From the NCBI RefSeq assembly GCF_055900595.2, contig NZ_CM148325.1: 64,000 nucleotides of DNA; one strand, written 5' to 3'. Both the position numbers and the translations under genes were made by a program. The notes below the pieces were generated by a model, which made no database searches, was not told the origin of the DNA, and worked only from the letters and a program-made list of their open reading frames with translations. This document shows, piece after piece, positions 1 to 55,279 of the stretch. How positions within the stretch are numbered: the stretch's first letter is position 1; every line of letters begins with the position of its first letter.

Positions 1-3000
1 TTTTCGATTCCGGCACCAATACCTGCAATATAGAGACGTCCATCCCGTGTCTGCTGCAGCTTCACAGCCCACATGCTGTTCAGGTTCCGGCGCGTGTCCT
101 CCTGAACTTTCTGTATCTGCTCAATGCTGGCATTCCAGGATCCCAGTTTTTTATCCGTGCTCTGTTTGATCTGACTTCCCTTATCATCAACATACTGTCT
201 GATCTGCGCTATCTGTCGGCTGTTCTCCTCCGTGCTCCTGCTTACTGTCTGCCGGATTTCGCTGCCCATCCTGTCAACTTTTCTGTCAACTTCCGCAATG
301 GCCATTGACTGTTCACCGCTCTTTTTCGCCACAACCGTACTTATTTCCGCACTTTTATCATCAACATACTGCCTGACCTGCGCTATCTGTCGGCTGTTCT
401 CCTCCGTGCTCCTGGTTACTGTCTGCCGGATTTCACTGCTCACGCTGTCAACTTTCCTGTCGACTTTCGCAATGGCCAGCGACTGTTCACCGCTCTTTTT
501 CGCCACCAGTTCCGTTATGCTGTTTTCAGACGCCGTGATTTTTTTCGTCACCTCTGCGATATCACGCTCCGCACGCTGCCTCACATCTTTCTCCAGCTGC
601 GTCATTTCGCGGTTAATCTCATTCTCCAGTTGCTCAACTTCAGTGCGCAGTGCAGAGGCATCAATGCGTTCATTGATCTCCCGTCCCAGATGCGTTTTAT
701 TTATCGCCCCCCTGAAAAAATTAAGGTAAGCGGCAGGATCATTACTCGGTTGACCGACTGCCTCCACGAATGCCGATTTACCGACAGTGTTAACACTGCG
801 GATATAAAAGTAATAATCATGGCCCGGCTTAATATTGATACTGGCGGCTATCCAGTACAGCGCCGTGCCAAGATAGCGGGCTGTGGTTTCAACCTGCCTG
901 ATATCGGTAATCCGCGTTTCCGAGAACCAGAACTCAAACTGTACCGTCGGGTCATAAACGGCAAGATGCGGCGTGGCGGTTATCTGAAAATAGCCCGGCG
1001 TCAGCTCAATCCGCGACGGCGCTGCCGGTGCGGCAATCCGGAACGATACCGACGCCGGGTCTCCCTGCTGCCCCCGGGCATTTACCGCCCGGACCGTCAG
1101 CGTGTAACGCCCCAGCGCCAGTTGCCTGAAGCGGTATGTGGTTTCCGTCGTCCGGGCCGTGCTGACCAGCCGCTCACTGCCGTCATCCGCTGCCACGGTC
1201 AGGCGAAGCAGGAAGCTCACGCCCTTCACCACCTTCGGCGTGTCCCAGCGCGCCAGCACCTGATATTCCCCGCTGTCTGCGGTGACTTCTGCGGTCAGGT
1301 GCTGCACCGCTGGCGGCGTGACACCATTCACCGTTCCGCTCTGGTCGCCGTCAAAGTGCGCCCCGTTATCCACGATGGCCTCTTTTTCCGGTACATGCTG
1401 CACGGCAGTGATGGCATACGTGCCGTCGTCGTTCTCACGGATACTCACGCAGCGGAACAGGCGCTGGCGCAGCGTCGGCAGCTTCAGCCCCCACACGCTG
1501 TATTCAGCAACGCCGTCAGGAACACTGCTCACTTTCACCTTCACGCCGTCAGTGACGGACTGAACCTCCACGCTGACCGGATTGCCACTTCCGTCAACCA
1601 GGCTTATCAGCGTGGTACCGGAGGATGGCAGCGTGATTTCACGATCGAGCGTCAGCGTCCGGGTCTGGCTGTTCACCGCCAGCACGCGCCCACCGGTGCT
1701 GATACCGGCATAGTCATCATCACAGATTTCAATGACATCGCCCGGCACATGGCGAAGCCCTTCGGCACCCACGCTGAAGTCCACGGTCTGCGTTTCCAGC
1801 AGCTCCGTTTTAATCAGCCACAGCCCGGCGCGGTGTGCCTGCCCCCGGCTGGTACAGCCAAAGGCATCCATCTTCGTGACGTTACGACCGTAACGGGCAA
1901 TGGCCTGCGTGTCCTCCACAAGCTCTGTCGCCGTCTCCTGGCCGTTATCCGGGTCACTCCAGTTCACCTCAACGGCATTATGGCGGTCCTTCAGGGCGCT
2001 GAAGCTGTAGCGGAACGGCGCGCCATCATCCGGCATCACCACATTACTGCGGTTATAGGTCCACACCTTATCCGACGGTCGGTCCTGCACGAACGTCAGC
2101 GTCTGCCCGTTCCATACCGGCATACAGCGCATCGCCGAGCAGAAATCACTGAGCACATCCCACGCCTTACGCTGCCTGGTCAGCCAGGCATTACAGGTGA
2201 TGCGCGGCTCCGTGCCACCAGAGCCGTCCGGCACCGACTGGTCGCAGTACTGGCCGATGACATACAGCGCCCATTTGTCCACATCCGCTGCGCCAACACG
2301 TTTCCCCATGCCGTAGCGCGGGTGGGTCAGCATATCCCACAGACACCAGGCCGGGTTATCGCTGTATGCCGGTTTAAACGTTCCGTCCCAGATACCGCTG
2401 TATTGCCGCGTCTGCGGGTTATAGTTCGACGGCACCTGCAGAATGCGCCCGCGAAAATGATAATTACGGCTCACCTGCTGGCTGCCGAACTCCTCCGAAT
2501 CCACCTGCACACCGACCAGTGCCGTGTTCGGGTAGCACTGTTTCACATCGATGATTTCGGTGTATGACGACCAGAGCGTTTTGTTCTGCAGCTGGTCTGT
2601 GGTGCTGTCCGGTGTCATCCTGCGCATCCGGATATTGAACGGGCGCGGCGGCAGGTTATCCACCACCACCGAAGCCAGATACTGTGAAGTGGTTTTTCCC
2701 TTAATGGTGATGTCTTTTTCCGTTAACCAGCGACCGTTACGCTGTATCTGAACCAGCAGGCGGACTTCCGACGGATTCCGGTCCCCCTTTGAGGTGGTTT
2801 CCACCAGTGCCTGCACACCGAAGGTCAGGCGCAGACGGTCGATGTTTGCCGACGTGATGGTCCGGGTAATCGGCGTGTCGTACTTCACTTCCGTACCCAG
2901 CACCGTCTCGGAGCCGGAGGATTCAAATCCCTCCGGCGGCGTCTGCTCCTGCTCACCGGCCCGGAACACCACCGTGACGCCGGAGATATTGGTATTCCCC

Positions 3001-3170
3001 TCACTGTCCAGCACCGGCGTACCGTTCAGCAGCACGCTTTTTAATCCATCCACCGGTCCTTGTATCGGCCCTTCGCTGATGACATCGATCACACTCAGCA
3101 ACTGCGTGGACTTCAGGTTGTCCTTCGCTTCGCGCGGGGTATGCCCCTTACTGCTGCCTTTACCCATTCC
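1..3170 (-). CDS. J: tail tip / host specificity protein J (partial; C-terminal part lies beyond window start)
   Basis: Minus-strand start at 3170 translates [34 protein letters not shown], matching lambda J N-terminus; reverse complement of 1-70 encodes [20 protein letters not shown], a J-internal motif; plus-strand ORF 630..2567 is an Arg-rich antisense shadow. Frame continuity over the whole span not checked by hand. Confidence 0.8.
185..526 (-). repeat. tandem direct repeat, 2 copies of ~171 bp, inside J coding region
   Basis: 185-355 and 357-526 are near-identical (e.g. ctatctgtcggctgttctcctccgtgctcctg...caccgctctttttcgccac occurs twice); unit length is a multiple of 3. Confidence 0.8.
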
Positions 3171-16012: not shown

Positions 16013-16215
16013 AACCTCACTCCCAGCGGACGACGGCGACGTCGGGTTGTCCCCAGTACCGACTCCGCATCATTGATCGCCCGGTTAAGCTCATCCAGAG
16101 AAGCCGCCGTATATTCAATTCTGCGACCATCTTTCTGGACAGACACCACCCGTTTACCGGTTAATAAATCAAGGCGCGCCTGACGCAGCGCCTGCAGTTC
16201 AGCGACTGTAACCAT
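16009..16215 (-). CDS. W: head-tail joining protein W
   Basis: 68-aa ORF; motif LLTGKRVVSVQKDGRRIEYT resembles lambda W. Confidence 0.8.
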   Translation of the reverse strand: MVTVAELQALRQARLDLLTGKRVVSVQKDGRRIEYTAASLDELNRAINDAESVLGTTRRRRRPLGVRL

Positions 16216-16546
16216 TCACTCCTCCGGACAGCTTCGCTGCCAGTTCTTTAAGGGTTGGCCGGGTCGTCTCTTCTTCCCGGGATTTTGCCAGTACAGCCAG
16301 ATCAAGCTGCCAGCGTTGCACGGACACACGTAATGCCGCGTAGGCATACACCAGGCAGTCCAGCGCTTCGTTACGCCGCTTTTTGTTATCCCACAGCAGA
16401 CGCATCTTTCCTTTTTCCCACTTCTCCACAAGCTCTTCCGCGGCCAGTTGCTGCGCCTCTGTCTGCGAAAAAATCTCCGGATCATCAGGAAAACGGATGG
16501 CATACGACGTGGCTTCATCCGCAGGCGTGGGATCGGCTTTCATACG
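16199..16546 (-). pseudogene. A: terminase large subunit A, C-terminal fragment (gene split by IS insertion)
   Basis: Frame encodes ...YRMKADPTPADEATSYAIRFPDDPEIFSQTEAQQLAAEELVEKW..., continuing the sequence at which the N-terminal fragment stops. Confidence 0.85.
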
Positions 16547-16599
16547 GTAACCGGCTCATTTAAACCGTCTGGTCTGTTTCCTCCGGCTCTACAAAAATA

Positions 16600-17277
16600 A
16601 TGTCCATCATTTTTAATGGACACTATCGTATGAAACACCGGACCTGGATCACTGAAGCTTTACGTCTTCACTTTGAAGAACATTTACCCCGGGTTGTGGC
16701 CGGGCGTCGCCTGGGTGTACCAAAATCAACAGTTTGTAGTATGTTCGTGCGCTTTCGGAGAGCTGGCCTTTCGTGGCCTTTGCCCGCAGGCATGTCGGAG
16801 CAGGAACTTGATGCCTGCCTTTACGGACAATTTTCCACGGTACCAGTCGTACGTCCTGAAAGCACCGTTATATCCGAAGCCCCCGTGGTAAAAAAACGTC
16901 CCCGGCGGCCCAACTTCCCTTATGAGTTTAAAATCGCCTTAGTGGAGCAGTCACTGCAGCCCGGAGCCTGTGTGGCGCAGATCGCCCGGGAAAACGGAAT
17001 CAACGATAACCTGCTCTTCAACTGGCGCCATCAATACCGGAAAGGTGGCCTGCTGCCTTCCGGAAAAAATATGCCGGCACTGCTTCCCGTGACGTTAACG
17101 CCGGAGCCGGATAATAAAATCCCGGCCCCCGCACAGGAACCAGAGCGGATAAATACACCGTCCGACAGTCTGTGTTGTGAGCTGGTTCTGCCGGCCGGAA
17201 CTCTCAGGCTTAAAGGTAAACTGACGCCGGCGTTATTACAGACACTTATCCGCGAAATAAAAGGGAGCAGCCACTGA
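16600..17277 (+). CDS. IS66 accessory protein TnpA (orf1)
   Basis: First ORF of the IS66-type operon; stop overlaps the next start (TGATGA); true start may be an internal Met. Confidence 0.8.
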   Translation: MSIIFNGHYRMKHRTWITEALRLHFEEHLPRVVAGRRLGVPKSTVCSMFVRFRRAGLSWPLPAGMSEQELDACLYGQFSTVPVVRPESTVISEAPVVKKRPRRPNFPYEFKIALVEQSLQPGACVAQIARENGINDNLLFNWRHQYRKGGLLPSGKNMPALLPVTLTPEPDNKIPAPAQEPERINTPSDSLCCELVLPAGTLRLKGKLTPALLQTLIREIKGSSH

Positions 17278-17624
17278 TGATATCTCTCCCTGCAGGTTCG
17301 CGTATCTGGCTGGTTGCAGGTATCACCGATATGCGAAATGGCTTTAACGGCCTGGCATCAAAAGTTCAGAACGTCCTGAAGGATGACCCGTTCTCCGGAC
17401 ACCTGTTCATCTTCCGCGGACGCCGGGGTGACCAGATAAAAGTGTTGTGGGCTGACAGTGACGGACTGTGCCTCTTCACCAAACGCCTGGAGCGGGGCCG
17501 CTTCGTCTGGCCAGTCACCCGTGACGGCAAGGTGCACCTTACTCCGGCTCAGTTATCCATGCTTCTTGAAGGTATCAACTGGAAGCACCCGAAACGAACG
17601 GAACGCGCTGGAATCCGCATATAA
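17277..17624 (+). CDS. IS66 accessory protein TnpB (orf2)
   Basis: 115-aa ORF, typical IS66 Orf2 size and position. Confidence 0.85.
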   Translation: MISLPAGSRIWLVAGITDMRNGFNGLASKVQNVLKDDPFSGHLFIFRGRRGDQIKVLWADSDGLCLFTKRLERGRFVWPVTRDGKVHLTPAQLSMLLEGINWKHPKRTERAGIRI

Positions 17625-17643
17625 CCCGTTGTAAAGTGAGGAT

Positions 17644-19215
17644 ATGGACACCTCACTTGCTCATGAGAACGCCCGCCTGCGGGCACTGTTGCAGACGCAA
17701 CAGGACACCATCCGCCAGATGGCTGAATACAACCGCCTGCTCTCACAGCGGGTGGCGGCTTATGCTTCCGAAATCAACCGGCTGAAGGCGCTGGTTGCGA
17801 AACTGCAACGTATGCAGTTCGGTAAAAGCTCAGAAAAACTTCGTGCAAAAACCGAACGGCAGATACAGGAAGCACAGGAGCGAATCAGCGCACTTCAGGA
17901 AGAAATGGCGGAAACGCTGGGTGAGCAATATGACCCGGTACTGCCATCCGCCCTGCGCCAGTCTTCAGCCCGTAAACCGTTACCGGCCTCACTTCCCCGT
18001 GAAACCCGGGTTATCCGGCCGGAAGAGGAATGCTGTCCTGCCTGTGGTGGTGAACTCAGTTCTCTGGGATGTGATGTGTCAGAGCAACTGGAGCTTATCA
18101 GCAGCGCCTTTAAGGTTATCGAAACACAACGTCCGAAACAGGCCTGTTGCCGGTGCGACCATATCGTGCAGGCACCAGTACCTTCAAAACCCATTGCACG
18201 CAGTTATGCCGGAGCGGGGCTTCTGGCCCATGTTGTCACCGGGAAATATGCAGACCATCTGCCGTTATACCGCCAGTCAGAAATATACCGTCGTCAGGGA
18301 GTGGAGCTGAGCCGTGCCACACTGGGGCGCTGGACAGGTGCTGTTGCTGAACTGCTGGAGCCGCTGTATGACGTCCTGCGCCAGTATGTGCTGATGCCCG
18401 GTAAAGTCCATGCTGATGATATCCCCGTCCCGGTCCAGGAGCCGGGCAGCGGTAAAACCCGGACAGCCCGGCTGTGGGTCTACGTCCGTGATGACCGTAA
18501 CGCCGGTTCACAGATGCCCCCGGCGGTCTGGTTCGCGTACAGTCCGGACCGGAAAGGTATCCATCCACAAAATCACCTGGCCGGTTACAGCGGTGTGCTT
18601 CAGGCCGATGCTTACGGTGGTTACCGGGCGTTATACGAATCCGGCAGAATAACGGAAGCCGCGTGTATGGCTCATGCCCGGAGAAAAATCCACGATGTGC
18701 ATGCAAGAGCGCCCACCTACATCACCACGGAAGCCCTGCAGCGTATCGGTGAACTGTATGCCATCGAGGCAGAGGTCCGGGGCTGTTCAGCAGAACAGCG
18801 TCTGGCGGCAAGAAAAGCCAGAGCCGCGCCACTGATGCAGTCACTGTATGACTGGATACAGCAACAGATGAAAACACTGTCGCGTCACTCAGATACGGCA
18901 AAAGCGTTCGCATACCTGCTGAAACAGTGGGATGCACTGAACGTGTACTGCAGTAATGGCTGGGTGGAAATCGACAACAACATCGCAGAGAACGCCTTAC
19001 GGGGAGTGGCCGTAGGCCGGAAAAACTGGATGTTCGCGGGTTCCGACAGCGGTGGTGAACATGCGGCGGTGTTGTACTCGCTGATCGGCACATGCCGTCT
19101 GAACAATGTGGAGCCAGAAAAGTGGCTGCGTTACGTCATTGAACATATCCAGGACTGGCCGGCAAACCGGGTACGCGATCTGTTGCCCTGGAAAGTTGAT
19201 CTGAGCTCTCAGTAA
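17644..19215 (+). CDS. IS66-family transposase TnpC (orf3)
   Basis: 523-aa ORF; N-terminal leucine-zipper-like region, CxxC...CxxC zinc motif (CCPACGG...CCRCDH), DDE-type core. Confidence 0.9.
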
Positions 19216-19241
19216 ATATCAATACGGTTCTGACGAGTCGC

Positions 19242-20834
19242 TTACTTCATACGGGCATAGAGAATTTCTTTTGCGGTGTCCGTCCCCACTTCACACAGAT
19301 ACACGCCCCGCTGATTGCGGGTTTTTGGCATGGTGATCACCGGCTTGCCATAGACAGATGCGCCTTTTACCGGCAGCACCCGGAAAACACCGTGTTTTTT
19401 TGACCTCTGATAAACGATTTCGCCATCGATCCCCCCGATGTCCCAGCAGACACGGGAAATGGTCATTTCGGTTCCGTCTGCATGGCGGTATTTTTTGTTG
19501 ATCGCTGCATCCACACGTAACAGCGTCTCTTCCTCATCGGGACGTCCCATAATAATGATTTTATCCACCAGAAAGGCTTCCTCTCCCGGAGCCCATCCCC
19601 AGACATACATCTCAAAACGGTTTCGCTGCGAGTCAATGCCCGCCGTCAGATAAACCACCCGGGCAGGCACCGCCGCCGTGTAACGCACAACCTTATCCAT
19701 CAGTACCTGGTGATCGAGTTTTTCGCCCACGGCCTCTTCCCAGGTCTCGCCCAGCGTGGTGTTCACAAAGGTTTTCAGGCCGTTGGGATCTTTCAGTGCA
19801 TCCAGCCAGTCATAGACTATCTGTACCCAGGTGGTGAACGGACTGTACGCCGTCCAGATATGGAAAGTGATGGAGCGCGGCGGCGGAATTTCATCACCCC
19901 GGGCGCTGAAAAACATCAGGCCGTCACGGGTCCACATGCCCGTGTTTTCAGAGATCCACCGCCCGTTACTCTGGTCAAGCTCAGACTGATGGATCACACA
20001 GCCATGATGCTCACAAAGGTAGAAAACGCTTTCGGGGCTGTCCTTCTCCCATTTAAGGCCAAAAGGCGTGGATTCATCGCCAAATTTCAGATACTGCTCC
20101 TCCCCACAGTGCGGGCAGGGCACATAAAAACGCATGAAATGTGCCGACTCGTTAGCGGCTTTTTCGATCTGGCAGGAGCCTTTGATTTTAGGCGTCGAGC
20201 CGCGAATGGATTTTGGCCATACAGAGCCCTCAATACGCTTATCCCCCAGCAGGGTTGGCGAGCCCTCTTTTTCAACATCAGGTTCAAACGATGAGAGTTC
20301 GTCATAGCAGACCACGTCCACGGATTTTTCACGGTAGTTTTTTGCTGCCGCACCACCCAGGCACCAGAAGCCCACACCCGATGAAAAGCGTTTCAGCGTG
20401 AGAGTATTGTCACGATGTTTACGCCCCAGCCATGGAGAAAGGTCTTTCAGACATGGCACATCCCGAATCGTCGCCTCCACGTGAGACTTCATAAAATCTT
20501 CAGCGGCAGAATCCGTGGGCTGAAAAAGCAGACTGTTTCGGGATTTATGCTCAATAAAATACCCGACCACCCCCAGCAACATCTTTGTATAACCAACACG
20601 GGCAGATTTAATCAGGTTAACAGTGCGAATCAGATCGTTGCCCATACAGTTCATGATGGCGATCTGGAACGGCAGCGTTTTCCATTCTCCCTCACCATAT
20701 GAAGATTCTTTAGGCAGATAATAATTTTGATCAGCCCATTCAACTGCCGTCACCGGCAATGCCCTTATCAGGGGCTGTAATGCTGTTGTGACAGCACTCA
20801 TCATATTATTCAGTTGTTGCTCTGATATATTCAT
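19242..20834 (-). pseudogene. A: terminase large subunit A, N-terminal fragment (truncated by IS66 insertion)
   Basis: Starts MNISEQQLNN..., contains TAVEWADQNYYLPKES and KNYREKSVDV (Walker-like) as in lambda gpA; the stop codon lies inside the IS end. Confidence 0.9.
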
Positions 20835-21315
20835 CGAGTAAATCCGGTAATTTATCCCCTGCCCGCGCACACTGATTTGCCCCCTTCGCAATAAGGGTTT
20901 TCAGATGGTCAAGATGGCGCGGTGTTAAATCAGGAAACTGTCGTTGCATGGATAAAGGGATGGAATCAAGCGTACTGGATAACGCCATTGCCAGCTTGCT
21001 GAGGGCAAAAATACAGAACCCGGTGTCAATAAGTTTTCCTTTTGACACCTCATTTTTTAACTGCTGTGTAACAGCCTGTTCTGCTGTCAGTTCCCATCTG
21101 GCAATAAGCAATTTCTCCTCATAGTCGTCTTCGCTATCGCCATCAGGCACATCGTTTTTACTTCTTCTCAGATACGATATGTAAAAATCACGCCAGGCAT
21201 CCAGATCCAGTTGCCCTCGCTTATTCGATATCGGGGCACCCGGCAATTTCTGCAGTCTGCGAAGCTGGCGATCGGTCAGACTCAAATGCCTGGCAACTTC
21301 AGTCTGCGTAGCCAC
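20806..21315 (-). CDS. nu1: terminase small subunit Nu1
   Basis: 169-aa ORF; N-terminal HTH (MATQTEVARHLSLTDRQLRRL); overlaps start of A; cos immediately upstream. Confidence 0.8.
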   Translation of the reverse strand: MATQTEVARHLSLTDRQLRRLQKLPGAPISNKRGQLDLDAWRDFYISYLRRSKNDVPDGDSEDDYEEKLLIARWELTAEQAVTQQLKNEVSKGKLIDTGFCIFALSKLAMALSSTLDSIPLSMQRQFPDLTPRHLDHLKTLIAKGANQCARAGDKLPDLLDEYIRATTE

Positions 21316-25608: not shown

Positions 25609-25685
25609 TGGACCGCCACCGGGGACTCGAACCTCGCACACTCAACTTAAAGGGTTGACGCTCTTTCCTGATGAGCTAGTGGCGG
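25609..25685 (-). tRNA. tRNA, identity uncertain (anticodon loop CCUUUAA)
   Basis: Acceptor CCGCCAC/GTGGCGG, D-arm GCTC..GAGC, anticodon stem TCAAC/GTTGA, T-loop TTCGAGT, 3' CCA encoded; position 33 is C rather than U. Confidence 0.65.
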
Positions 25686-25687
25686 TT

Positions 25688-25762
25688 GGTGGCCCTTGCT
25701 GGATTTGAACCAGCGACCTGGCGATTATGAGTCGCTCGCTCTCACCACTGAGCTAAAGGGCC
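25688..25762 (-). tRNA. ileZ: tRNA-Ile2 (CAU anticodon; ileX/ileZ-like)
   Basis: Reverse complement GGCCCTTTAGCTCAGTGGTGAGAGCGAGCGACTCATAATCGCCAGGTCGCTGGTTCAAATCCAGCAAGGGCCACCA is a near-match to E. coli ileX; T-arm GCTGG-TTCAAAT-CCAGC. Confidence 0.85.
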
Positions 25763-25952: not shown

Positions 25953-25989
25953 TTGCATGAAATATATGCCTTTCAATCTACTTTTGCAA
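25953..25989 (-). promoter_or_regulatory. late promoter pR'-like (sigma70)
   Basis: Minus strand TTGCAA (-35; 25984-25989), 17-bp spacer, TATATT (-10; 25961-25966), just downstream of Q. Confidence 0.6.
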
Positions 25990-26668
25990 CACTTTGCTTT
26001 GAAAATGCCGCCTTTTGTTTTGAACGTGTTCTCATTACAAACAATAAAGCCTCACTATCCAGTCGTTGAAAAATGTGTTTCATTGCAACCCAGTGACGAG
26101 TAAATGTTTTGGACCAGTTTTTAGTTGTCACTCCCGCCAGTAATGCCAGCTCCTGGTATTCATAACCTTCCCCACCAAAAAGTTCTGCTTTTACTGCCTG
26201 CGCCGCCAGCCAGATTAATTTTTTCAGGCGTTCCTGCGTTTTCCCTGCAATTTTTCTGGTACCTGATTGAGTATTAAATTCATTCCACGCCCACTGTGTT
26301 ATCGCGATCTGATATTCCCAACAAATACTCCCGCTGTAACTCCACAACAACCAGGCTTTATGATGTTCTTCAAGAGACAGAACAGCCCGCCGCCACGATG
26401 ATGTCGAAAACTCAACCGGGCTGACCAGGGCAATTGATGAGCCTTTCGCCAGTGATTGTTTTCCCGGGATTGGTGGATTATCCCGCGTAATCATTTTTCC
26501 GGTCACTTCATCTCGGTACCGGATTTTTTTACGCCTGTAACGCCCTGTATCGAACATGGCATTCTCCTGCCAGGCTTCAAGCTGACCTTTTGTTGCCCCA
26601 CTCAAATCAGCGGTGGCGATAATGAGCTCCTCACGCACAAACTGTAAATACTGGTTATTCATGCGCAC
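25973..26668 (-). CDS. Q: late antiterminator Q-like protein
   Basis: 231-aa ORF immediately upstream of pR'/tR' and downstream of rusA; canonical Q position. Confidence 0.7.
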   Translation of the reverse strand: MRMNNQYLQFVREELIIATADLSGATKGQLEAWQENAMFDTGRYRRKKIRYRDEVTGKMITRDNPPIPGKQSLAKGSSIALVSPVEFSTSSWRRAVLSLEEHHKAWLLWSYSGSICWEYQIAITQWAWNEFNTQSGTRKIAGKTQERLKKLIWLAAQAVKAELFGGEGYEYQELALLAGVTTKNWSKTFTRHWVAMKHIFQRLDSEALLFVMRTRSKQKAAFSKQSVAKVD

Positions 26669-28897: not shown

Positions 28898-29053
28898 TTA
28901 CTCCTCAGGTTCGTAAGCTGTGAAGACAGCGACCTCCGTCTGGCCGGTTCGGATTCGTACCTCGCAGAGGTCTTTCCTCGTTACCAGTGCCGTCACAATG
29001 ACGGTAATACAGATGACGATCAGGGCGACTAACATCGCCTTTTGCTGCTTCAT
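28898..29053 (-). CDS. hok: Hok/Gef-family type I toxin (in-frame upstream extension to 29110 is mok-like)
   Basis: MKQQKAMLVALIVICITVIVTALVTRKDLCEVRIRTGQTEVAVFTAYEPEE resembles Hok (single TM, conserved C...EVA.F.AYE); inverted repeat GGCGAGGGATTTCTCCCTCGCC in the 3' region. Confidence 0.85.
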   Translation of the reverse strand: MKQQKAMLVALIVICITVIVTALVTRKDLCEVRIRTGQTEVAVFTAYEPEE

Positions 29054-29264
29054 AGCCTGCTTCTCCTTGCCTTTCGGCACGTAAGAGGCTAACCTAGATT
29101 TGCCGTTCATAGATTGAGCCTCAGATTAATGTTAAGCGTCTTGCCGGACGCGTAATGTTAACTGGGGCTTTTCTCTATCTGCCTTTTGGGGTTCATGCCT
29201 GAGACAGATAGCCTCAAGCACCCGCTGCAATTCTACTTAACTCTCCTTTTCCCGCAAACCGTTT

Positions 29265-35420: not shown

Positions 35421-36208
35421 CAGACCCCTCAGAGGATACCACCTCGCCTGACGTGGTTAAAAGCAGGCACACAACACGAAAGCGCACGGCGAGGTAGCTG
35501 GTTCATATATAGCCTGTCGTTAAATTTTCGTCGACCGTGCGCTTCCGGTTGTGGCACTCCGCGAAATGGCGCGGCGGTAAGCATGGCGGGGTTCCCTTCC
35601 CCTTGAGGACACCGGGTTGTCAGGTTGACCATGCGCCTGAGTGACAACCCCGCTGCAACGCCCTCTGTTATCAATTTTCTGGTGACGTTTGGCGGTATCA
35701 GTTTTACTCCGTGACTGCTCTGCCGCCCTTTTTAAAGTGAATTTTGTGATGTGGTGAATGCGGCTCAGCGCACGCGGAACAGTTAAAACCAAAAACAGAG
35801 TTATGGGTGGATTCTCTGTATCCGGCGTTAATTGTTAACTGGTTAACGTCACCTGGAGGCACCTGGCACCGCATCAACAAAGTTCACTTCGGTGATGAAA
35901 GGTAAGAGAAAATGTTGAATGTAGCTATTGAAAACCAGTACGGGTGGAATTATAGTGCACCTGCACCTCATAAAACGGGTGCCGGGCGTGGAAACCCGAA
36001 AGTTACTCGAGCGCATAACCGCGCCGAAGCGGTTTTTTTATGCGTAATGCACAGCCACATTCAGATAATGGTGGGGCGTGCAGGGCAGCTGCAAGGCTGG
36101 CCGGGTTCTCGAGTGACCGGTATTTCCACCCCTGTACGTCTCGCCACCCTTATGGTCGTGGAAAGCCTCGGTGGTGAGTTAATTAACTTAACACTTGAGG
36201 ATGCCATC

Positions 36209-39664: not shown

Positions 39665-39913
39665 ATGGCAAGACTTATTCTGCTCACTGAGTGGGCAAAA
39701 GAGGAATTCAGTGAACCGGTCCCTAGTCCGGGTACGTTAAGTAAATACGCTAAAGCCGGAATGATATTTCCTCTCCCCAAAAAAGTAGGAAGGCACTGGC
39801 GAGTGGATCCACGCGCTCGCTTTGTCGGAATGGTAAACAAGCCGGAGGTGATCGCCACAGATCACCCTGCTTTGAAGAGGATACTGGAAGATGGCGCGCC
39901 CGCGAAAATATAA
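39665..39913 (+). CDS. xis: excisionase (Xis)
   Basis: 82-aa ORF overlapping the int start; motif resembles lambda Xis. Confidence 0.75.
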   Translation: MARLILLTEWAKEEFSEPVPSPGTLSKYAKAGMIFPLPKKVGRHWRVDPRARFVGMVNKPEVIATDHPALKRILEDGAPAKI

Positions 39914-41021
39914 AACCGATGTTCCGGGTTTATCTCCGTATTTTGACAAAAGAAATAACAAAGTTTACTGGCGTTACAGGCATCCCATCACAGGTAAAAA
40001 TCATGGACTCGGCAGTATTGACCAGAAACTGGCGGAAACCATTGCAGCAGAAGCGAACAGCCGTCTTGCCAGACAACAAATGGAGCAAATGCTCAGTCTG
40101 CAGGAGAAAATTATTAGTGATACCGGCGGCGCATCAACCGTTTCCATTTTTCTGAATAATTACAGAAAAATTCAACAGGAAAGATATGAGAACGGAGAGA
40201 TCAAACTCAGCACGCTGAAGCAAAAAGCGGCTCCTCTCAGGGTGTTTGATGAACGTTTTGGAGCCAGGCCGCTAGATGCCATAACCGTAAAAGATGTGGT
40301 ATCGGTGCTGGAAGAATACAAGGCAAAGGGACATAACAGAATGGGACAAATTTTCAGGAAGGTATTGATCGATGTTTTCCGGGAGGCTCAACAAACGGGT
40401 GATGTTCCGCCAGGCTTTAACCCGGCTGAATCGGCAAAAAAACCGCAAGTGCGGATATCAAGACAGCGACTGACTTTTGATGAGTGGATGATGATTTATA
40501 ACGCAGCGGAAAAGGATGGTTACTTTTTACAGCGCGGCATGCTGCTGGCACTGATGACGGGCCAGCGTCTTTCGGATATTTGCAAAATGCAGTTTTCGGA
40601 TATCCGGGATGGTTACCTTCATGTCGAACAGCAAAAAACAGGAGCCCGGATAGCCATTCCTCTGGCTCTGCGTTGCGACAAATTAAATCTTACCCTGGGT
40701 GACGTGGTGTCATCCTGTCGTGATTACATCCTTAGTCCGTGGTTATTGCACCATCATCACGCTAAGGGGATGGGTAAGCGCGGCGGGATGGTTAAACCAG
40801 CAACATTAACAGTCGCATTTAAAAAAGCCCGGGATTCTGTGGATTACAACTGGCGTGCTAATGGCACGCCACCCTCTTTCCATGAGCAAAGATCTTTATC
40901 AGAACGATTGTTCAGAGAACAGGGAATTGATACCAAAATTTTGCTGGGCCATTCGAATCAAAAAATGACCGATATTTACAACGACGCACGCGGTAAAGAG
41001 TGGAAAAAACTGGTTATTTGA
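39891..41021 (+). CDS. int: tyrosine integrase (lambda Int family)
   Basis: 376-aa ORF; N-terminal arm-binding-like region; C-terminal catalytic region (...LLGHSNQKMTDIY) ; att junction immediately downstream. Confidence 0.9.
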   Translation: MARPRKYKTDVPGLSPYFDKRNNKVYWRYRHPITGKNHGLGSIDQKLAETIAAEANSRLARQQMEQMLSLQEKIISDTGGASTVSIFLNNYRKIQQERYENGEIKLSTLKQKAAPLRVFDERFGARPLDAITVKDVVSVLEEYKAKGHNRMGQIFRKVLIDVFREAQQTGDVPPGFNPAESAKKPQVRISRQRLTFDEWMMIYNAAEKDGYFLQRGMLLALMTGQRLSDICKMQFSDIRDGYLHVEQQKTGARIAIPLALRCDKLNLTLGDVVSSCRDYILSPWLLHHHHAKGMGKRGGMVKPATLTVAFKKARDSVDYNWRANGTPPSFHEQRSLSERLFREQGIDTKILLGHSNQKMTDIYNDARGKEWKKLVI

Positions 41022-41066: not shown

Positions 41067-41705
41067 TTAGAAGCGGTATCCGGCAGAGAACATAAACACC
41101 CACGGATCCAGTCGTACCGCGTCTTTCACGGGGGTTCCATTAAATTTATAGCTGGCGGTGGTGTCGATATCCATGTACCAGACTGACATGTTCACCAACC
41201 AGTCACGGTTAATCAGATAATCAACCCCCACCTGCCCGGCAGCTCCCCAGGAGTCTTTCAGACTGAGATCGGAAAGTCCCGCCTCTTTGCCATGATCGTT
41301 GAATCCATTATCAAAGAAGGTGGTGTAGTTAATACCTGCCCCAACGTAAGGACGGAATTTGCTGCTGGCATCACCAAAATACCACTGCGCCATCAGTGTT
41401 GGCGGCAGATGATGAACGGTTGCAATATCGCCGGTCGCCCGGGTGCCGATTTTATGGCGGAACGGCGTCGCTGCCAGCAATTCCACACCAATGTTATCGG
41501 TCGCCATATAAGTAAACGTCAGGCCCAGTTGCGTGTTATTGGTCACGCTGAATCCACCCAGACTTCCTAACGTACCACCAGCACCTTCTGTTGGACGTAC
41601 GGTTGCAGAACCTGCACGCATAAAAAATTCGCCTGCTTCATGCGCAAAGGCACTGCCAGAGAGAAGAGTTGTTACTGCCAAAGCCGCCACTGTTAACTTT
41701 TTCAT
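41067..41705 (-). CDS. ompW: outer membrane protein W
   Basis: 212-aa product MKKLTVAALAVTTLLSGSAFA...SAGYRF (C-terminal Phe); ORF-track start extended upstream. Confidence 0.95.
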   Translation of the reverse strand: MKKLTVAALAVTTLLSGSAFAHEAGEFFMRAGSATVRPTEGAGGTLGSLGGFSVTNNTQLGLTFTYMATDNIGVELLAATPFRHKIGTRATGDIATVHHLPPTLMAQWYFGDASSKFRPYVGAGINYTTFFDNGFNDHGKEAGLSDLSLKDSWGAAGQVGVDYLINRDWLVNMSVWYMDIDTTASYKFNGTPVKDAVRLDPWVFMFSAGYRF

Positions 41706-42061
41706 ATCCGCTCCGTCGTTATGGTTATAAAAACGTGACGAATATACCCACATTGGAGTAACAAATGATCCTACATAGATCACATTACATATGATAATTC
41801 ACCCTTTATTGATCTGGATTAATTTAGAAGTTGCACTGGAAATCCTGGTTAATGTGATTTAAATCAATTTTTAAATATTTTCGCTACGCAAATATTAACT
41901 CGCTCGCCACTTGCAGCGGTTTGCCCACGCCTGAAGGCCAGCAATTACCTCCGCTTTACAAAGATATGCTTTTCCATACAAGACCTGATGCTGCCACCCG
42001 AGGCTTAACCAGGGTACAATTGCCCGCTAATTAACACCTGCATAAAACTCAAGGAGAGTGC

Positions 42062-48957: not shown

Positions 48958-49962
48958 TTAAAGCGGATCGACTTTCAGGCAAGACACGGCGTGTCTGAAA
49001 CTCCCCTCCAGCACAGGACGTGTTTTGGCACACTCTGGACCGGCAATCGGGCAACGGGTACGGAAAACACAACCGGAAGGCGGGTTGATCGGCGACGGTA
49101 ATTCCCCTTCCAGTAACTGGATGGTTTTGTTCTTCTCCAGATCCGGATCAGGTATGGGGACTGCCGACATCAATGCCCTGGTGTAAGGATGTAGTGGATT
49201 GTGATAGACCTCATCATAGGTCCCCAGTTCTACCGCATGGCCGAGATACATCACCAGCACACGATCGGAAATGTGTTTTACCACGGCCAGGTCGTGAGCG
49301 ATAAAAATTAATGACAATCCCATCTCGCGTTGCAGCTGCTGGAGCAGGTTGACCACCTGCGCCTGAATTGACACGTCCAGCGCCGACACCGGCTCATCAC
49401 AGATAATCAGCTTCGGTTCAAGAATAAGAGCACGAGCAATCCCGATACGCTGGCACTGCCCACCAGAGAACTCATGCGGATAGCGGTTAATCAGGTTAGG
49501 CAATAACCCGACTTTCAGCATCATCGCCTTCACGCGCTCGCGAACTTCCTGGCGTGACATTTTCGGATGATAAGTACGCAGTGGTTCAGCGATGATCTCG
49601 CCGATGGTCATACGCGGGTTAAGCGATGCCAATGGATCCTGGAAAATCATCTGAATATCACTGCGAACGGCACGCCATTCATCGGGCTTCATGCCCAGCA
49701 ACTCTTTACCTAACCAGGCAACATGACCGTCGGTCGCTTTAACCAGGCCAATGATGGCGCGAGCAAAGGTGGACTTACCGCATCCCGACTCCCCTACCAC
49801 ACCTAATGTTTCCCCTTCATACAGGCGAAGAGTTACACCATCTACGGCTTTGAGCGTTTTCGGCGGTTGCCAGAACCACTGTTTGCCATCTTTGATTTCA
49901 AAGTGCACTTTCAAATCGGCGATTTCGAGGAGGACTTTTCTTCCTTCGGTTACAGCATTCAT
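48958..49962 (-). CDS. oppF: oligopeptide ABC transporter ATP-binding protein OppF
   Basis: 334 aa; Walker A GESGCGKS, ABC signature LSGGQ, Walker B. Confidence 0.95.
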   Translation of the reverse strand: MNAVTEGRKVLLEIADLKVHFEIKDGKQWFWQPPKTLKAVDGVTLRLYEGETLGVVGESGCGKSTFARAIIGLVKATDGHVAWLGKELLGMKPDEWRAVRSDIQMIFQDPLASLNPRMTIGEIIAEPLRTYHPKMSRQEVRERVKAMMLKVGLLPNLINRYPHEFSGGQCQRIGIARALILEPKLIICDEPVSALDVSIQAQVVNLLQQLQREMGLSLIFIAHDLAVVKHISDRVLVMYLGHAVELGTYDEVYHNPLHPYTRALMSAVPIPDPDLEKNKTIQLLEGELPSPINPPSGCVFRTRCPIAGPECAKTRPVLEGSFRHAVSCLKVDPL

Positions 49963-50972
49963 AACAGTTCCTCCACCGGTTTAAAGCAAGCACGCAGACG
50001 GCCAAGCGTAAACTCTTCCAGCGGCGGTGCGCTACTACAAATTTCCATCGCATGCGGACAACGTGGCTGGAACGGGCAACCTTTCGGTAATCGCAACAGG
50101 TTTGGCGGATTACCCGGGATGGTCAACATTGTTTCACCTTCAGCATCGAGACGCGGCACCGCGTTGAGTAAACCGATAGAATAAGGATGAACGGGTTGAT
50201 AAAAGACATCGCGCGCGTTGCCATATTCCATCGTGCGCCCGGCGTACATTACCAGCACTTTGTCGCAGATCCCTGCCACCACGCCAAGATCGTGGGTGAT
50301 CATAATGATGGCGGTATTAAATTCCCGCTTCAGTTCATTCAATAGCGTCATGATCTGCGCCTGTACGGTGACGTCCAGCGCAGTAGTGGGTTCATCAGCA
50401 ATCAGCAGCTTAGGTCGACATAGCAATGCCATCGCAATCATGACTCTTTGACGCATGCCGCCAGAAAATTCATGCGGAAACATCTTCATGCGTTTACGCG
50501 CTTCCGGCATTTTTACCGCATCGAGCATCCGCACCGACTCTTCAAACGCCTCAGATTTGCTCATGTTCTTATGCAACATCAGCACTTCCATCAACTGCTC
50601 ACCGACGCGCATATAGGGATTCAACGAAGTCATCGGATCCTGAAAAATCATTGAGATTTGTTCAGCACGCAGTTTATTGAGTTCACGCTCTGGCAAATTG
50701 AGGATTTCACGCCCATTGAAGGTTGCCGAGCCGCCAATACGCCCATTGGCAGCCAGCAGGCCCATCAACGCAAATGCAGTTTGCGATTTACCCGAACCAG
50801 ACTCACCGACAATGCCCAGCGTTTCCCCGGCACGTAGAGAAAAATTCAAATCATTGACCGCCGTGACGTCGCCGTCCGGGGTACTAAAGGTGACACGCAA
50901 ATCTTTCACGTTCAGCAGTGCGTCAGCCTGTTGTTGTGCGAGCGGCACAGTTGCAGTTTCAATTACGCTCAT
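49959..50972 (-). CDS. oppD: oligopeptide ABC transporter ATP-binding protein OppD
   Basis: 337 aa; Walker A GESGSGKS, ABC signature FSGGMRQR. Confidence 0.95.
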   Translation of the reverse strand: MSVIETATVPLAQQQADALLNVKDLRVTFSTPDGDVTAVNDLNFSLRAGETLGIVGESGSGKSQTAFALMGLLAANGRIGGSATFNGREILNLPERELNKLRAEQISMIFQDPMTSLNPYMRVGEQLMEVLMLHKNMSKSEAFEESVRMLDAVKMPEARKRMKMFPHEFSGGMRQRVMIAMALLCRPKLLIADEPTTALDVTVQAQIMTLLNELKREFNTAIIMITHDLGVVAGICDKVLVMYAGRTMEYGNARDVFYQPVHPYSIGLLNAVPRLDAEGETMLTIPGNPPNLLRLPKGCPFQPRCPHAMEICSSAPPLEEFTLGRLRACFKPVEELL

Positions 50973-50983
50973 GGCTGCACTCC

Positions 50984-51892
50984 TTAACGATCTTTCGGGT
51001 CGAGGGCATCACGCAAGCCATCGCCGATAAAGTTGAAACAAAATAGCGTCACCACGAGGAATCCCGCTGGGAACAACAGTAACCATGGAGAGACTTCCAT
51101 CGAGTTCGCGCCATCACTCAGCAATGCGCCCCAGCTGCTTAACGGCTCTTGCGTCCCCAACCCCAGGAAGCTAAGGAAAGATTCAAAGAGGATCATGCTG
51201 GGCACCAGTAGCGATGCGTAGACCACCACCACACCGAGTACGTTCGGTACAATGTGGCGAATAACAATGCCCGGCGTCGATACACCGCCAACTTGTGCCG
51301 CCTCAATAAACTCTTTACGCTTCAGACTCAGGGTTTGCCCACGCACAATACGAGCCATATCCAGCCAGGAAACCATGCCAATCGCCACGAAAATCAGCAG
51401 GATGTTTTGACCGAAAAAGGTCACCAGCAAAATGACGAAGAACATGAATGGGAAGGAGTTGAGGATTTCCAGCAGACGCATCATTACCGAATCCACTTTA
51501 CCGCCCAGATAACCGGAAAGCGAACCATAAAGTGTCCCCACGACCACTGCCACCAGTGCCGCAGCAACACCGACCATGAGTGAGATACGCCCGCCAATCG
51601 CAACACGCACAAGCAGGTCGCGACCGGATGAGTCAGTACCAAAGTAGTGACCGGACTCCATATCTGGGGCGCTGGACATCATCGCCCAGTCAGTATCGTC
51701 ATAGGCAAACTGCGAAAGCATCGGTGCCAGGATTACAAATAACGCGATTAGCACCAGCACTATCAGACTGGCAACCGCCGCACGGTTATGCATAAAACGT
51801 CGACGTGCGTCCTGCCACAAGCTGCGCCCTTCGACCTCCAGCTTTTCACTGAAATTTTCCAGCGTCTCGCTGTTTTTCTTACTTAACATCAT
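50984..51892 (-). CDS. oppC: oligopeptide ABC transporter permease OppC
   Basis: 302-aa permease; operon position. Confidence 0.95.
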   Translation of the reverse strand: MMLSKKNSETLENFSEKLEVEGRSLWQDARRRFMHNRAAVASLIVLVLIALFVILAPMLSQFAYDDTDWAMMSSAPDMESGHYFGTDSSGRDLLVRVAIGGRISLMVGVAAALVAVVVGTLYGSLSGYLGGKVDSVMMRLLEILNSFPFMFFVILLVTFFGQNILLIFVAIGMVSWLDMARIVRGQTLSLKRKEFIEAAQVGGVSTPGIVIRHIVPNVLGVVVVYASLLVPSMILFESFLSFLGLGTQEPLSSWGALLSDGANSMEVSPWLLLFPAGFLVVTLFCFNFIGDGLRDALDPKDR

Positions 51893-51906
51893 CGCGAGCT
51901 CCAGTA

Positions 51907-52827
51907 TCAGTAACGGATTTTCGGGTCGATAACCGCATATAGCACATCGACAATGGCATTAAACAAAATGGTTAACGCGCCAACCAGAATGGTCAGACTT
52001 AACACTAAGGAATAGTCACGATTCAATGCGCCATTAACGAACAATTGCCCAATCCCCGGTAAACCATAAATGGTTTCGATGACCATAGAACCGGTAATAA
52101 TGCCGACAAATGCAGGGCCCATATAGGAGAGCACGGGTAACAGAGCAGGTTTTAATGCGTGGCGTAAAATGATCCGCCGCATAGGTAACCCTTTCGCCCG
52201 GGCAGTACGAATAAAGTTGGAGTGTAATACTTCAATCATAGAGCCACGGGTAATACGCGCAATACTGGCGATATAGGCGAGTGACAACGCCACCATTGGC
52301 AGTATCATGAATTTAAGCGCACCACCATTCCAGCCACCGCCCGGCAGCCAATGCAAAATGATCGCAAATATCATGACTAATAATGGCGCAACCACAAAAC
52401 TGGGGATAACAACCCCGGTCATTGCCAGCCCCATCACGGTATAGTCCCATTTGGTGTTTTGTTTTAATGCGGCAATAACGCCAGCACTAACACCCAGTAT
52501 TACCGCAAGGAAAAATGCTGCGGCTCCCAGTTTGGCAGAAACGGGAAAACTGGATGCAACCAGGTCGTTGACCGAATAATCTTTATATTTAAACGATGGA
52601 CCGAAATCGCCATGCGCCAGTTGTTTCAGGTAGCTGAAATACTGTGTCATGATCGGATCATTAAGATGATATTTCGCTTCGATATTGGCCATCACTTCTG
52701 GCGGTAAAGTACGTTCGCCGGTAAAAGGGCTTCCCGGCGCGAGGCGCATCATGAAGAACGAAATAGTAATAAGAATAAATAGCGTCGGAATCGCTTCCAG
52801 ACAGCGACGTAGAATAAATTTTAACAT
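51907..52827 (-). CDS. oppB: oligopeptide ABC transporter permease OppB
   Basis: 306-aa permease; operon position. Confidence 0.95.
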   Translation of the reverse strand: MLKFILRRCLEAIPTLFILITISFFMMRLAPGSPFTGERTLPPEVMANIEAKYHLNDPIMTQYFSYLKQLAHGDFGPSFKYKDYSVNDLVASSFPVSAKLGAAAFFLAVILGVSAGVIAALKQNTKWDYTVMGLAMTGVVIPSFVVAPLLVMIFAIILHWLPGGGWNGGALKFMILPMVALSLAYIASIARITRGSMIEVLHSNFIRTARAKGLPMRRIILRHALKPALLPVLSYMGPAFVGIITGSMVIETIYGLPGIGQLFVNGALNRDYSLVLSLTILVGALTILFNAIVDVLYAVIDPKIRY

Positions 52828-52912
52828 TGCCCTACCTTCTGGCCTGTGCCTTCTGTAATGCGATAAAAATCAGACACCGTGGAGCAGGACACTCCTGCCC
52901 CACGTATTGCCA

Positions 52913-54544
52913 TTAGTGCTTCACAATGTACATATTCCGGGTGTAGGTATTATCCAGCGGATCTTTGCCGGTATAGCCACCAACCCACGGTTTCACCAGA
53001 CGCGCATTCACGTAGTAATAAACAGGAACAATGGCCGAATCCTTATCCAGCTGTTGTTCTGCTTTAGTGTACAGAGCTGTGCGCTGCGCCTCGTCAGTCG
53101 CTTTCAGCGTTTCCGCCATAATGCTGTCAAAGGCCGGGCTCTTATAATGCGCGGTATTCATCGAGCTGTTCGACAGCATGGTGTTCAGGAAGGAAGTTGG
53201 TTCGTTGTAGTCTGCGCACCAGCCTGCACGGGCCACATCAAAAGTGCCCTGGTGACGGGTGTCGAGGAACGTTTTCCACTCCTGGTTAACCAGTTTGACG
53301 TTTACACCAATGTTTTTCTTCCACAATGAAGAGGCAGCAATCGCCAGCTTTTTATGCAGATCGGAGGTGTTATACAACAGGTTGATGGTCAACGGTTTGT
53401 CTGCGGTATAACCCGCTTCAGCCAGCAGTTTTTTCGCTTCTTCGTTACGTTTTTCCTGGCTCCAGCCAAACCATTCCGGCTGAGTCAATTTTGCGCCATC
53501 AGTATACGGTGGAGTGTAACCATAGGCGGGCATGTCGCCCTGCGCTTTCACTTTATTAACAATGATATCGCGGTCCATACCCAGTTTCAGTGCGGTACGC
53601 ACACGTACATCGTTGAATGGCGGTTTCTGGTTGTTAATTTCGTAATAATAAGTGCACAGGTATGGATCAACGTGAACTTCGTCCGGGATCTCTTTTTTCA
53701 GCTTCTGGAACAATTCGATCGGCATGTTGTTATAAGTCATGTCGATTTCACCACTACGGTAGCGGTTGACATCGGTAACTTCAGAAGCAATAGGCAAATA
53801 GGTTACCTGGTTAATAACGGTTTTCGCGTTGTTCCAGTAGGTTGGGCTGCGTTCAAGAACGATTCGTTCGTTTACGACCCAATCTTTTAAGGTATAGGCA
53901 CCGTTGGTGATGATATTACCAGGCTGGGTCCATTTTTCGCCGAATTTCTCGATAGCGGCTTTTGGCACCGGTGAAGTTGATGGGTGAACAAGTAATTTAT
54001 AGAAGTACGGAACAGGTTCACTTAAGGTGACTTCTAATGTGTGATCATCAATAGCTTTCACGCCGAGATCGGTAATCGGTTTTTTCCCTTCAAGAATTTC
54101 ATCAATACCGGCGATATGCCCATATTGCAGATAACTGGCATACGGAGAAGCGGTGTTTGGATCAACAGAACGTTGCCAGCTATACACAAAGTCTTGTGCT
54201 GTGACTGGCGTGCCATCAGACCATTTCGCATCTTTACGCAAATGGAAGGTCCAGACTTTCGCGTCTTTATTATCCCAGGATTCAGCGACGCCAGGTGCCG
54301 GATGACCGTCAAGATCGCTGACCAGTAAGCCTTCAAACAGGTCTCGGCTGATATTAGACTCCGGAACACCTTCAATTTTATGCGGATCCAATGACTGAAC
54401 TTCTGAACCATTGTTACGTACCAGCGTTTGTTTTTCCGCCAGTGTGACGCCTGCGGGTACATCAGCTGCCAGCGCGACATTCCCTGCCATAAGCGCAGCC
54501 AGAACGCCAGCTGCTACTAAACTTCTCTTGGTGATGTTGGTCAT
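52913..54544 (-). CDS. oppA: periplasmic oligopeptide-binding protein OppA
   Basis: 543 aa starting MTNITKRSLVAAGVLAALMAGNVALA (signal peptide); family 5 solute-binding protein. Confidence 0.95.
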   Translation of the reverse strand: MTNITKRSLVAAGVLAALMAGNVALAADVPAGVTLAEKQTLVRNNGSEVQSLDPHKIEGVPESNISRDLFEGLLVSDLDGHPAPGVAESWDNKDAKVWTFHLRKDAKWSDGTPVTAQDFVYSWQRSVDPNTASPYASYLQYGHIAGIDEILEGKKPITDLGVKAIDDHTLEVTLSEPVPYFYKLLVHPSTSPVPKAAIEKFGEKWTQPGNIITNGAYTLKDWVVNERIVLERSPTYWNNAKTVINQVTYLPIASEVTDVNRYRSGEIDMTYNNMPIELFQKLKKEIPDEVHVDPYLCTYYYEINNQKPPFNDVRVRTALKLGMDRDIIVNKVKAQGDMPAYGYTPPYTDGAKLTQPEWFGWSQEKRNEEAKKLLAEAGYTADKPLTINLLYNTSDLHKKLAIAASSLWKKNIGVNVKLVNQEWKTFLDTRHQGTFDVARAGWCADYNEPTSFLNTMLSNSSMNTAHYKSPAFDSIMAETLKATDEAQRTALYTKAEQQLDKDSAIVPVYYYVNARLVKPWVGGYTGKDPLDNTYTRNMYIVKH

Positions 54545-55279
54545 TGTTTTTTGGACTCCCTCATTATAATTACTGGTATTAACCAGCATGTGTAATCCCG
54601 GATTGGGACCCTGCACAGGCTCGGAGACTTTCTGCTGTCAGGTTACTTTATCGTTACGGATTGCTATCACCGACTTTATTTATTCTGGTGATTCAGACGA
54701 TCACCTTATGTCGATTCGTACTGTGTCTCCCCTGTCGAGACACATTATTCTTTTGCGACGCTCTTTAATTGTTAATTATTCTCATTACCAATAAAAATCG
54801 CCTGGCGGTTGGTCGGAAAGTACCAAATGCGCTTCTTACTCGCCAATACATTTTGCAAAATTGTTAAGCAATTCTCTTTTATTGACCGTATCAGAATCTA
54901 TAGCTTGTATCCATGTCTTAACAAACATCTTTCAATTCAATCAAATAGAGATTGGTTAAGCATGTCTATCTTTTCTGATTACAGTTCCAGTAGTGAAATG
55001 CACAATAATTTAACAATTGATTGTTATTTAGCACTTTCCTCTACCAAAGGCAGTGGAATTACTAATATCATTTCAATTATTCTTCAGCAAGCCCAGGATT
55101 ATGATGTGGCGAAAATAACATGATGGTGAGGCGAAGCAGTTAAGGAAATCCTTATAAATAACTGTAATTTCAGAGGAATATTCTGACCTATTCCTTTTGC
55201 TTTTGATAACTGCGCGGGAACAAAGTAAAAATAATGACGATAAAACGGAGCATGTCAGCTCCGTTTCATTTGAAAGGAA

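Follow-up and report, generated by a model that had tools for sequence, protein, structure and literature searches.

Gene J encodes the textbook receptor-binding fibre of lambda-like phages. In a 64,000-nt stretch of contig NZ_CM148325.1 (assembly GCF_055900595.2), called the window below and used for counting the coordinates of the repeat, the J gene of a prophage carries an in-frame duplication of a 174-bp unit (2 x 174 bp) inside the segment that encodes the shaft of the fibre. The insert has a 29/8 helical periodicity, 29 residues over eight turns, and J genes of this kind in nature have from one to three units. We favour the view, at a probability of about 0.6, that the units form a length-variable trimeric coiled-coil spacer in the J shaft and are gained and lost by unequal recombination; that the chains form an extended trimer, and how much length each unit contributes, are what we infer. 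The repeat is a polymorphism in the length of a structural element already known, not a new system, and the literature that we searched contained no description of the extended shaft.

Repeat unit and reading frame

Tandem Repeats Finder identified one array at positions 181–506, with a period of 174, 1.9 copies, 92% matches, no indels and a score of 568. In a self-offset scan of positions 101–620, offset 174 gave 146 matches in the best 170-nt window, and all other offsets from 160 to 189 gave 44–63 matches. The tandem head-to-tail repeat is real and far above chance, and its period is 174 bp, or 58 codons. The first-pass annotation had placed a 171-bp repeat of 57-residue units at 185–526. 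The repeat and its rough location stand, the exact limits were shifted, and the period of 171 bp is ruled out: the copies align at offset 174 only, and offset 171 yields 57 matches.

If the units are phased to begin at VAKK, unit 1 (the A type, positions 333–506 on the minus strand) encodes residues 888–945 of J, and unit 2 (the B type, positions 159–332, minus strand) encodes residues 946–1003. The two are identical at 146 of 174 nucleotides and at 45 of 58 amino acids. Their first 150 nt match at 138 positions, 15 of the last 21 nt differ, and the longest exact run common to both is 37 nt. The units had been described as lying just upstream of a conserved J motif; the order is as described, and direct abutment is not, because a degenerate 29-residue row at 72–158 separates unit 2 from the motif. 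Each unit also contains a 12-bp micro-repeat (CTGTCAACTTTC twice, at 445–468 and 271–294) that encodes VDRKVD, a small internal duplication inside the 58-residue module.

Both units are covered by one minus-strand open reading frame (ORF), which begins with an ATG at 3167 and runs without a stop through 1055 codons until it leaves the window at its left edge (1–3167), so that the repeat is in frame in J; the C-terminus of the protein lies beyond that edge. The gene is a lambda-type tip attachment (central tail fibre) gene J. Its product matches the Pfam series FNIII-A_GpJ, Phage-tail_3, Ig_J and Ig_J_second, with E-values of 2e-41 to 1e-38 for these four domains, followed by the start of Phage_Tail_Tip from residue 1015, of which the first 40 profile positions are matched and the rest are cut by the window edge. 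The upstream genes follow the lambda order: tape measure (H), L, K (JAB and NlpC/P60 domains) and I. Lambda J and the window J are 91% identical over the part that aligns. Two plus-strand ORFs (232–729 and 630–2567) overlap the repeat; they are antisense inside the well-supported J frame and were treated as by-products.

With a unit of 174 bp, and two versus three units in alleles whose J proteins are 97% identical, the array is a coding variable-number tandem repeat. It does not behave as a phase-variable on/off contingency locus, since the observed length changes (21, 33, 87 and 174 bp) are all in frame.

Position within the lambda J shaft

Residues 809–861 of lambda J form an alpha-helical shaft, a three-helix bundle below the FNIII domains, which anchors the three FNIII-2 units (PMC11101478, Ge & Wang 2024). 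The bundle connects them to the beta-prism and the receptor-binding tip. On LamB binding this shaft turns by about 180 degrees, while its upper helix (809–840) shortens and residues 841–861 become beta strands (PMC11101478).

When residues 800–1055 of the window J were compared with solved lambda J chains by phmmer, these aligned only at residues 800–837 and 1013–1055. Residues 1–38 of this segment match lambda 800–837, and residues 214–256 match lambda 842–885 (8iyk_J). The first match corresponds to the upper part of the shaft (657–743, minus strand; homologous to lambda residues ~809–837), which directly follows the FNIII-2 domain (Ig_J_second, PF24489; 714–1022, minus strand, residues 716–818, E = 1e-38). 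The second covers the lower end of the shaft and the start of the beta-prism of the central straight fibre (3–131, minus strand; homologous to lambda 842–885). The HLG and MWAVK anchors enclose 33 residues in lambda J and 203 in the window J. The ~170 extra residues are inserted between lambda residues ~837 and ~842, at the junction of the shaft segments 809–840 and 841–861. The insert thus lies in the gpJ shaft, between FNIII-2 and the beta-prism, with both flanks homologous to the lambda shaft (809–837 and 842–861).

Both the alignment to lambda J and the solved chains show that lambda J has no copy of the 58-residue unit. The first-pass annotation had assumed that lambda has this region in single copy, and here it was mistaken, while its assignment of the gene to J and of the repeat to the J frame was sustained. 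The single-copy state is found in other lambdoid J proteins, such as those of B1W1 and PhiR49_2.

Helical periodicity of the insert

The extended alpha-helical shaft (72–680, minus strand; residues 830–1032) can be written as seven consecutive rows of 29 residues. Rows 3–6 are the two 58-residue units, each composed of two similar 29-mers. The hydrophobicity spectrum of the shaft peaks at 3.63 residues (29/8 = 3.625) with a power of 181, compared to 31 +/- 14 (maximum 72) in 300 shuffled sequences, and the hydrophobic phase is unbroken through all seven rows. Row positions 1, 5, 8, 12, 15, 19, 22 and 26 are strongly hydrophobic in 34 of 56 cells versus 14 of 147 elsewhere. Isoleucine, valine or threonine occupies 33 of the 56 core cells, with layers of S/T and Q/N at positions 5 and 8. 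The shaft has no proline and five glycines in its 203 residues.

A single-sequence AlphaFold2 model of the monomer predicts one uninterrupted helix at residues 837–1040 (204 residues), with a predicted local distance difference test score (pLDDT) of about 90. The period, the core register and this continuous predicted helix together point to an amphipathic alpha-helix. The insert has a non-heptad (29/8) coiled-coil pattern. It departs from the canonical heptad coiled coil of 3.5 residues per turn: the peak is at 3.63, and the 29-mer equals four heptads plus one residue. No Pfam family covers the insert; the sole match is a sub-threshold one to Apolipoprotein at residues 839–1016 (E = 0.0028; 17.8 bits against a cut-off of 90).

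Copy number and length variation

A 760-bp region with both units was searched, at a coverage of at least 80% and with the same span, in 5426 complete Escherichia coli genomes. It was found in 21 of them, none 100% identical to the window, and the one-unit type of B1W1 was found in 23. The copy number varies in otherwise collinear J genes as a series of one, two and three units. Strain AR_0085 (locus L001) has a J of 1238 residues with three units, the first two of which are identical at 174 of 174 nt, and P0001 is a second, independent three-unit record; the first-pass annotation had called such repeats prone to slippage. F1022 (L002) has a J of 1180 residues with two units, and B1W1 (L004) and L006 have one unit each. 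AR_0085 and F1022 have in common a 33-bp in-frame tandem duplication of 11 residues (LENAINREMTQ twice), the equivalent of which is single in the window (597–629). This is a duplication within the same shaft that is independent of the duplication of the 58-residue unit.

We also scanned IMG/VR with the motif EENxRQIAQ[VI]RQYVD and found 46 loci, 44 of them with one match and two (L022 and L051) with two matches 174 bp apart. The J proteins of these two loci are 97% identical to the window J. The window J had been expected to exceed lambda J (1132 residues) in length; it is itself incomplete in the window, and its full-length two-unit relatives bear this out, at 1169 residues in L022 and L051 and 1180 in F1022. 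J is intact in L001, L002, L022 and L051. A different J lineage in IMG/VR (L027, L042 and L044) has independent shaft duplications of 29 and 7 residues; the 29-residue one is the second half-unit, and the 7-residue one is LEENIGQ / LEEDIRQ. These separate duplications imply that the shaft has expanded more than once.

Among 50,697 phage records this shaft occurs in two, the isolated phages PhiR49_2 and PhiR40_1, each with one unit in a J of 1232 residues; a one-unit shaft works in isolated phages. The shaft motif was absent from all 100,044 species-representative genomes in two motif scans. A representative-library search with a profile of the unit gave 22 matches, consisting of J fragments and a few unrelated, weak coiled-coil or tetratricopeptide repeat (TPR) proteins. 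Full-length J proteins are probably hidden there in clusters represented by lambda-like J, and the copy-number census was taken from the IMG/VR motif scan instead.

From anchor to anchor, the J alleles measure 33, about 61, 134, 170, 203, 214 and 272 residues. The length differences among the extended alleles, of 7, 11, 29 and 58 residues, all come near to an integral number of turns when 3.625 residues are counted per turn (1.9, 3.0, 8.0 and 16.0).

Several further features of these J genes were observed. In L001, L002, L022 and L051 the C-terminus of J is short (ending in NNVLRVRLGRL) and lacks the lambda-type receptor-binding domain, and in L001 and L002 the next genes are not lom but two small hypothetical ones (74 and 220 residues). 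With a short C-terminus followed by such genes, the receptor-binding part of these two loci may be carried by a protein of its own. P0009, P0011 and P0012 combine the same shaft with lambda-like C-termini. The J fragment P0013, from the representative library, has an extra 29-residue duplication in the shaft and a second 29-residue duplication in the beta region; it is possibly an artefact, as there are two 87-bp duplications in one gene. In NZ_CP100500.1 (strain LH50-c), a two-unit J shaft is found at 1509114–1509873 and at 2368236–2380241, apparently in two separate prophages.

Constraint and age of the units

Between genomes, A-type units are conserved at 171–174 of 174 nt and B-type units at 172–174 of 174 nt, while A and B differ from each other at ~28 nt. 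The ratio of non-synonymous to synonymous substitution rates (dN/dS) is 0.27–0.39 between units A and B, with a dS of 0.22 in the leading 51 codons. Orthologous one-unit shafts give a dN/dS of 0.10 when compared with each other and are saturated at synonymous sites. The shaft units are under purifying selection. Given the dS of 0.22, the A/B duplication is not recent; the third unit of AR_0085, in contrast, is.

A model for the extended shaft and its alternatives

We propose that the shaft of this J lineage grew by iterated duplication of a 29-residue, eight-turn unit. Most likely, the rows of three J chains would run in parallel and pack without a break into a nearly straight, three-stranded coiled coil that continues the three-helix bundle of lambda. 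The rise of a standard helix is ~0.15 nm per residue. At that rise, each 58-residue unit would add 16 helical turns, or ~8.6 nm, with the angular register between collar and tip unchanged, and the whole insert would add ~25 nm over the lambda shaft. Units would be gained or lost when homologous recombination between them is unequal or when replication slips. [quoted passage not shown] O-polysaccharide is known to screen receptors of the outer membrane against J-type fibres (PMC12312913). A bolder form of the model, which we hold only tentatively and consider doubtful, is that the J shaft is a quantised spacer whose reach lambdoid phages tune in 29-residue (~4.3 nm) steps by tandem duplication, with the angular phase between collar and tip kept, to match the depth of O-antigen or capsule. 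If so, the receptor signal must travel along more than 30 nm of coiled coil; in lambda, a 53-residue shaft flips and partly refolds.

Several observations weigh against a length-variable trimeric spacer. The structural model of the extended shaft comes from single-sequence AlphaFold2 and represents a monomer, being neither a multimer nor an experimental structure. The same procedure applied to lambda residues 790–905 as a control gave a mean pLDDT of 52, with a helix at 839–858 and strands after 862; owing to this low-confidence control, AlphaFold2 counts only as support for the helicity of the window shaft. The terminase large-subunit gene gpA (16199–20891) of the window prophage is split by an IS66-family element, two units are found in no isolated phage among the 50,697 records, and Ch1 (L003), which of all complete genomes matches best, has two units in a frameshifted J. 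On these three grounds, a two-unit J is only putatively functional in the virion. Any link between the length of the shaft and the receptor, the O-antigen or the host range would be speculative.

Some of these observations would also be expected if the structure is as proposed and the copy number has no function. The repeat would then be a tolerant spacer in which units come and go as a neutral by-product of recombination, mainly in prophages no longer selected as viruses. We regard this as possible, if rather unlikely: a probably packaging-defective window prophage, the frameshift in Ch1, the missing two-unit isolate and the rarity of the two-unit allele (21 of 5426 genomes) all speak for it. 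However, the A and B types are each kept nearly invariant across genomes despite their mutual differences at 28 nt, dN/dS between them is 0.27–0.39, J is intact in four of the loci (L001, L002, L022 and L051), and every observed indel preserves both the frame and the helical phase. A different geometry, in which each 58-residue unit is an antiparallel hairpin of two 29-residue helices and the shaft becomes thicker rather than longer, appears very unlikely. It would fit the two mutually similar 29-residue halves of the unit; a hairpin of equal helices would keep the direction of the chain, and the weak, sub-threshold Apolipoprotein match would agree with it. Against this, AlphaFold2 predicts the 204-residue helix without a turn, the hydrophobic phase continues over seven rows, and proline is absent and glycine scarce (five in 203 residues). 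Alleles that differ by a single 29-mer, or by 7 or 11 residues, also exist, and a single 29-mer would reverse the chain direction of a hairpin.

The duplication in the window could finally be a false expansion or collapse produced by assembly. Tandem repeats are a known assembly hazard, and the databases contain many entries of this region that are fragments broken off within the units: a query with the shaft returned 12 protein clusters, several with dozens to hundreds of members, and nine of the 12 are fragments that start or end in or at the units. Eight of these nine are on contigs of 435–5074 bp, and the ninth, P0001, comes from a 4.7-Mb contig on which the gene call is truncated. The fragments fit short-read assemblies that break at the repeat. 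A and B have no exact run in common beyond 37 nt, and the breaks may therefore really be due to paralogous J genes or to A-A alleles within one genome. The concern that the repeat is prone to assembly trouble finds some support in the databases, but hardly in the window. Its copies differ at 28 of 174 nt, with no longer exact run than the one just given, so that reads distinguish them without difficulty. Twenty-one complete genomes and two IMG/VR loci show this A-B arrangement as well, down to the unit-specific substitutions. We therefore rejected an artefact in the window, which we consider extremely improbable.

The general picture of how J works is unchanged by the repeat. A series of J alleles that differ almost only in shaft length amounts to a ready-made experiment on the reach of a fibre through surface polysaccharide, and it bears equally on how the opening signal passes from the tip to the tail. 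Fibre engineers may find in it a modular spacer, and in annotation and assembly, breaks of J genes at the repeat are to be expected.

Genomic context of the prophage

The N-terminal part of the terminase gpA is encoded at 19242–20891 (GpA_nuclease profile positions 3–221 of 294), and a C-terminal remnant at 16199–16543 (profile positions 230–287 of 294). Between them, on the plus strand, lies the IS66-family element, with tnpA (16600–17277), tnpB (17277–17624) and a transposase gene (17644–19215). Because this element splits the terminase gene, the window prophage is probably defective in packaging.

The prophage integrase gene (39891–41021) adjoins ompW (41067–41783). The chromosomal flank continues to position 64000 with a yciC-like gene (UPF0259), tonB, kch, cls, five opp-like ORFs (48958–54616, assigned by position only) and adhE. 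The integrase next to ompW and this flank place the prophage end and the insertion site inside the window. Adjacent genes for tRNA Lys (ttt) and tRNA Met (cat) are encoded on the minus strand at 25609–25762, just downstream of the antiterminator Q gene (25973–26668). Rfam matches above the gathering score at 29048–29223, 35677–35728, 35963–36039 and 36064–36151 identify sok antitoxin RNA, DicF, isrK and C4 antisense RNA, which are usual small RNAs of lambdoid prophages.

Comparison with known systems

A close structural reference is the shaft of lambda gpJ (residues 809–861; PDB 8XCJ/8XCK and 8IYK). It occupies the same position in the protein, both of its flanks are homologous to those of the window shaft, and the rest of J is 91% identical. 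In contrast to the window J, it has 33 rather than 203 residues between the anchors and lacks both the 58-residue unit and the 29-residue rows.

The one-unit J proteins of PhiR49_2, PhiR40_1, the B1W1 prophage and the 44 IMG/VR loci share the 29-residue rows and the flanking rows, and their unit is 67–69% identical to that of the window at the protein level. They differ by having 134 residues between the anchors, and the DNA of their unit is identical to that of the window at only 108–119 of 174 positions, with saturated synonymous sites. This low identity and saturation indicate that the window lineage is a separate, duplicated branch. The J proteins of phage 21 (1160 residues) and the Stx2-converting phage 1717 (1159 residues) have an intermediate shaft, longer than that of lambda, in which only the final 29-residue row ahead of MWAVK is common to the window J, but with ~61 residues between the anchors, a proline in the segment and no 58-residue unit.

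Outside the J family, non-heptad trimeric coiled-coil stalks are known from trimeric autotransporter adhesins and phage fibres through the work of Lupas and co-workers, and in these the number of repeats sets the length of the stalk. Polar layers with N at position d in trimeric coiled coils were reportedly described by Hartmann et al. in 2009. These stalks resemble the J shaft in their beta-branched I/V core, their polar N/Q layers and their periodicities composed of 7- and 11-residue elements; the likeness is one of analogy, the trimer in J being putative. Sequence homology between the stalks and the J shaft was not found in the representative-library search, which gave J fragments and a few weak coiled-coil or TPR matches.

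Deletions and duplications in the lambda tape-measure protein gpH change the length of the tail. Tape-measure proteins differ from J in being another protein that controls another dimension, the tail tube instead of the fibre below the tail tip, and any proportionality for J would hold by analogy. They are alike in that a helical segment, through in-frame duplication or deletion, would scale a dimension of the virion.

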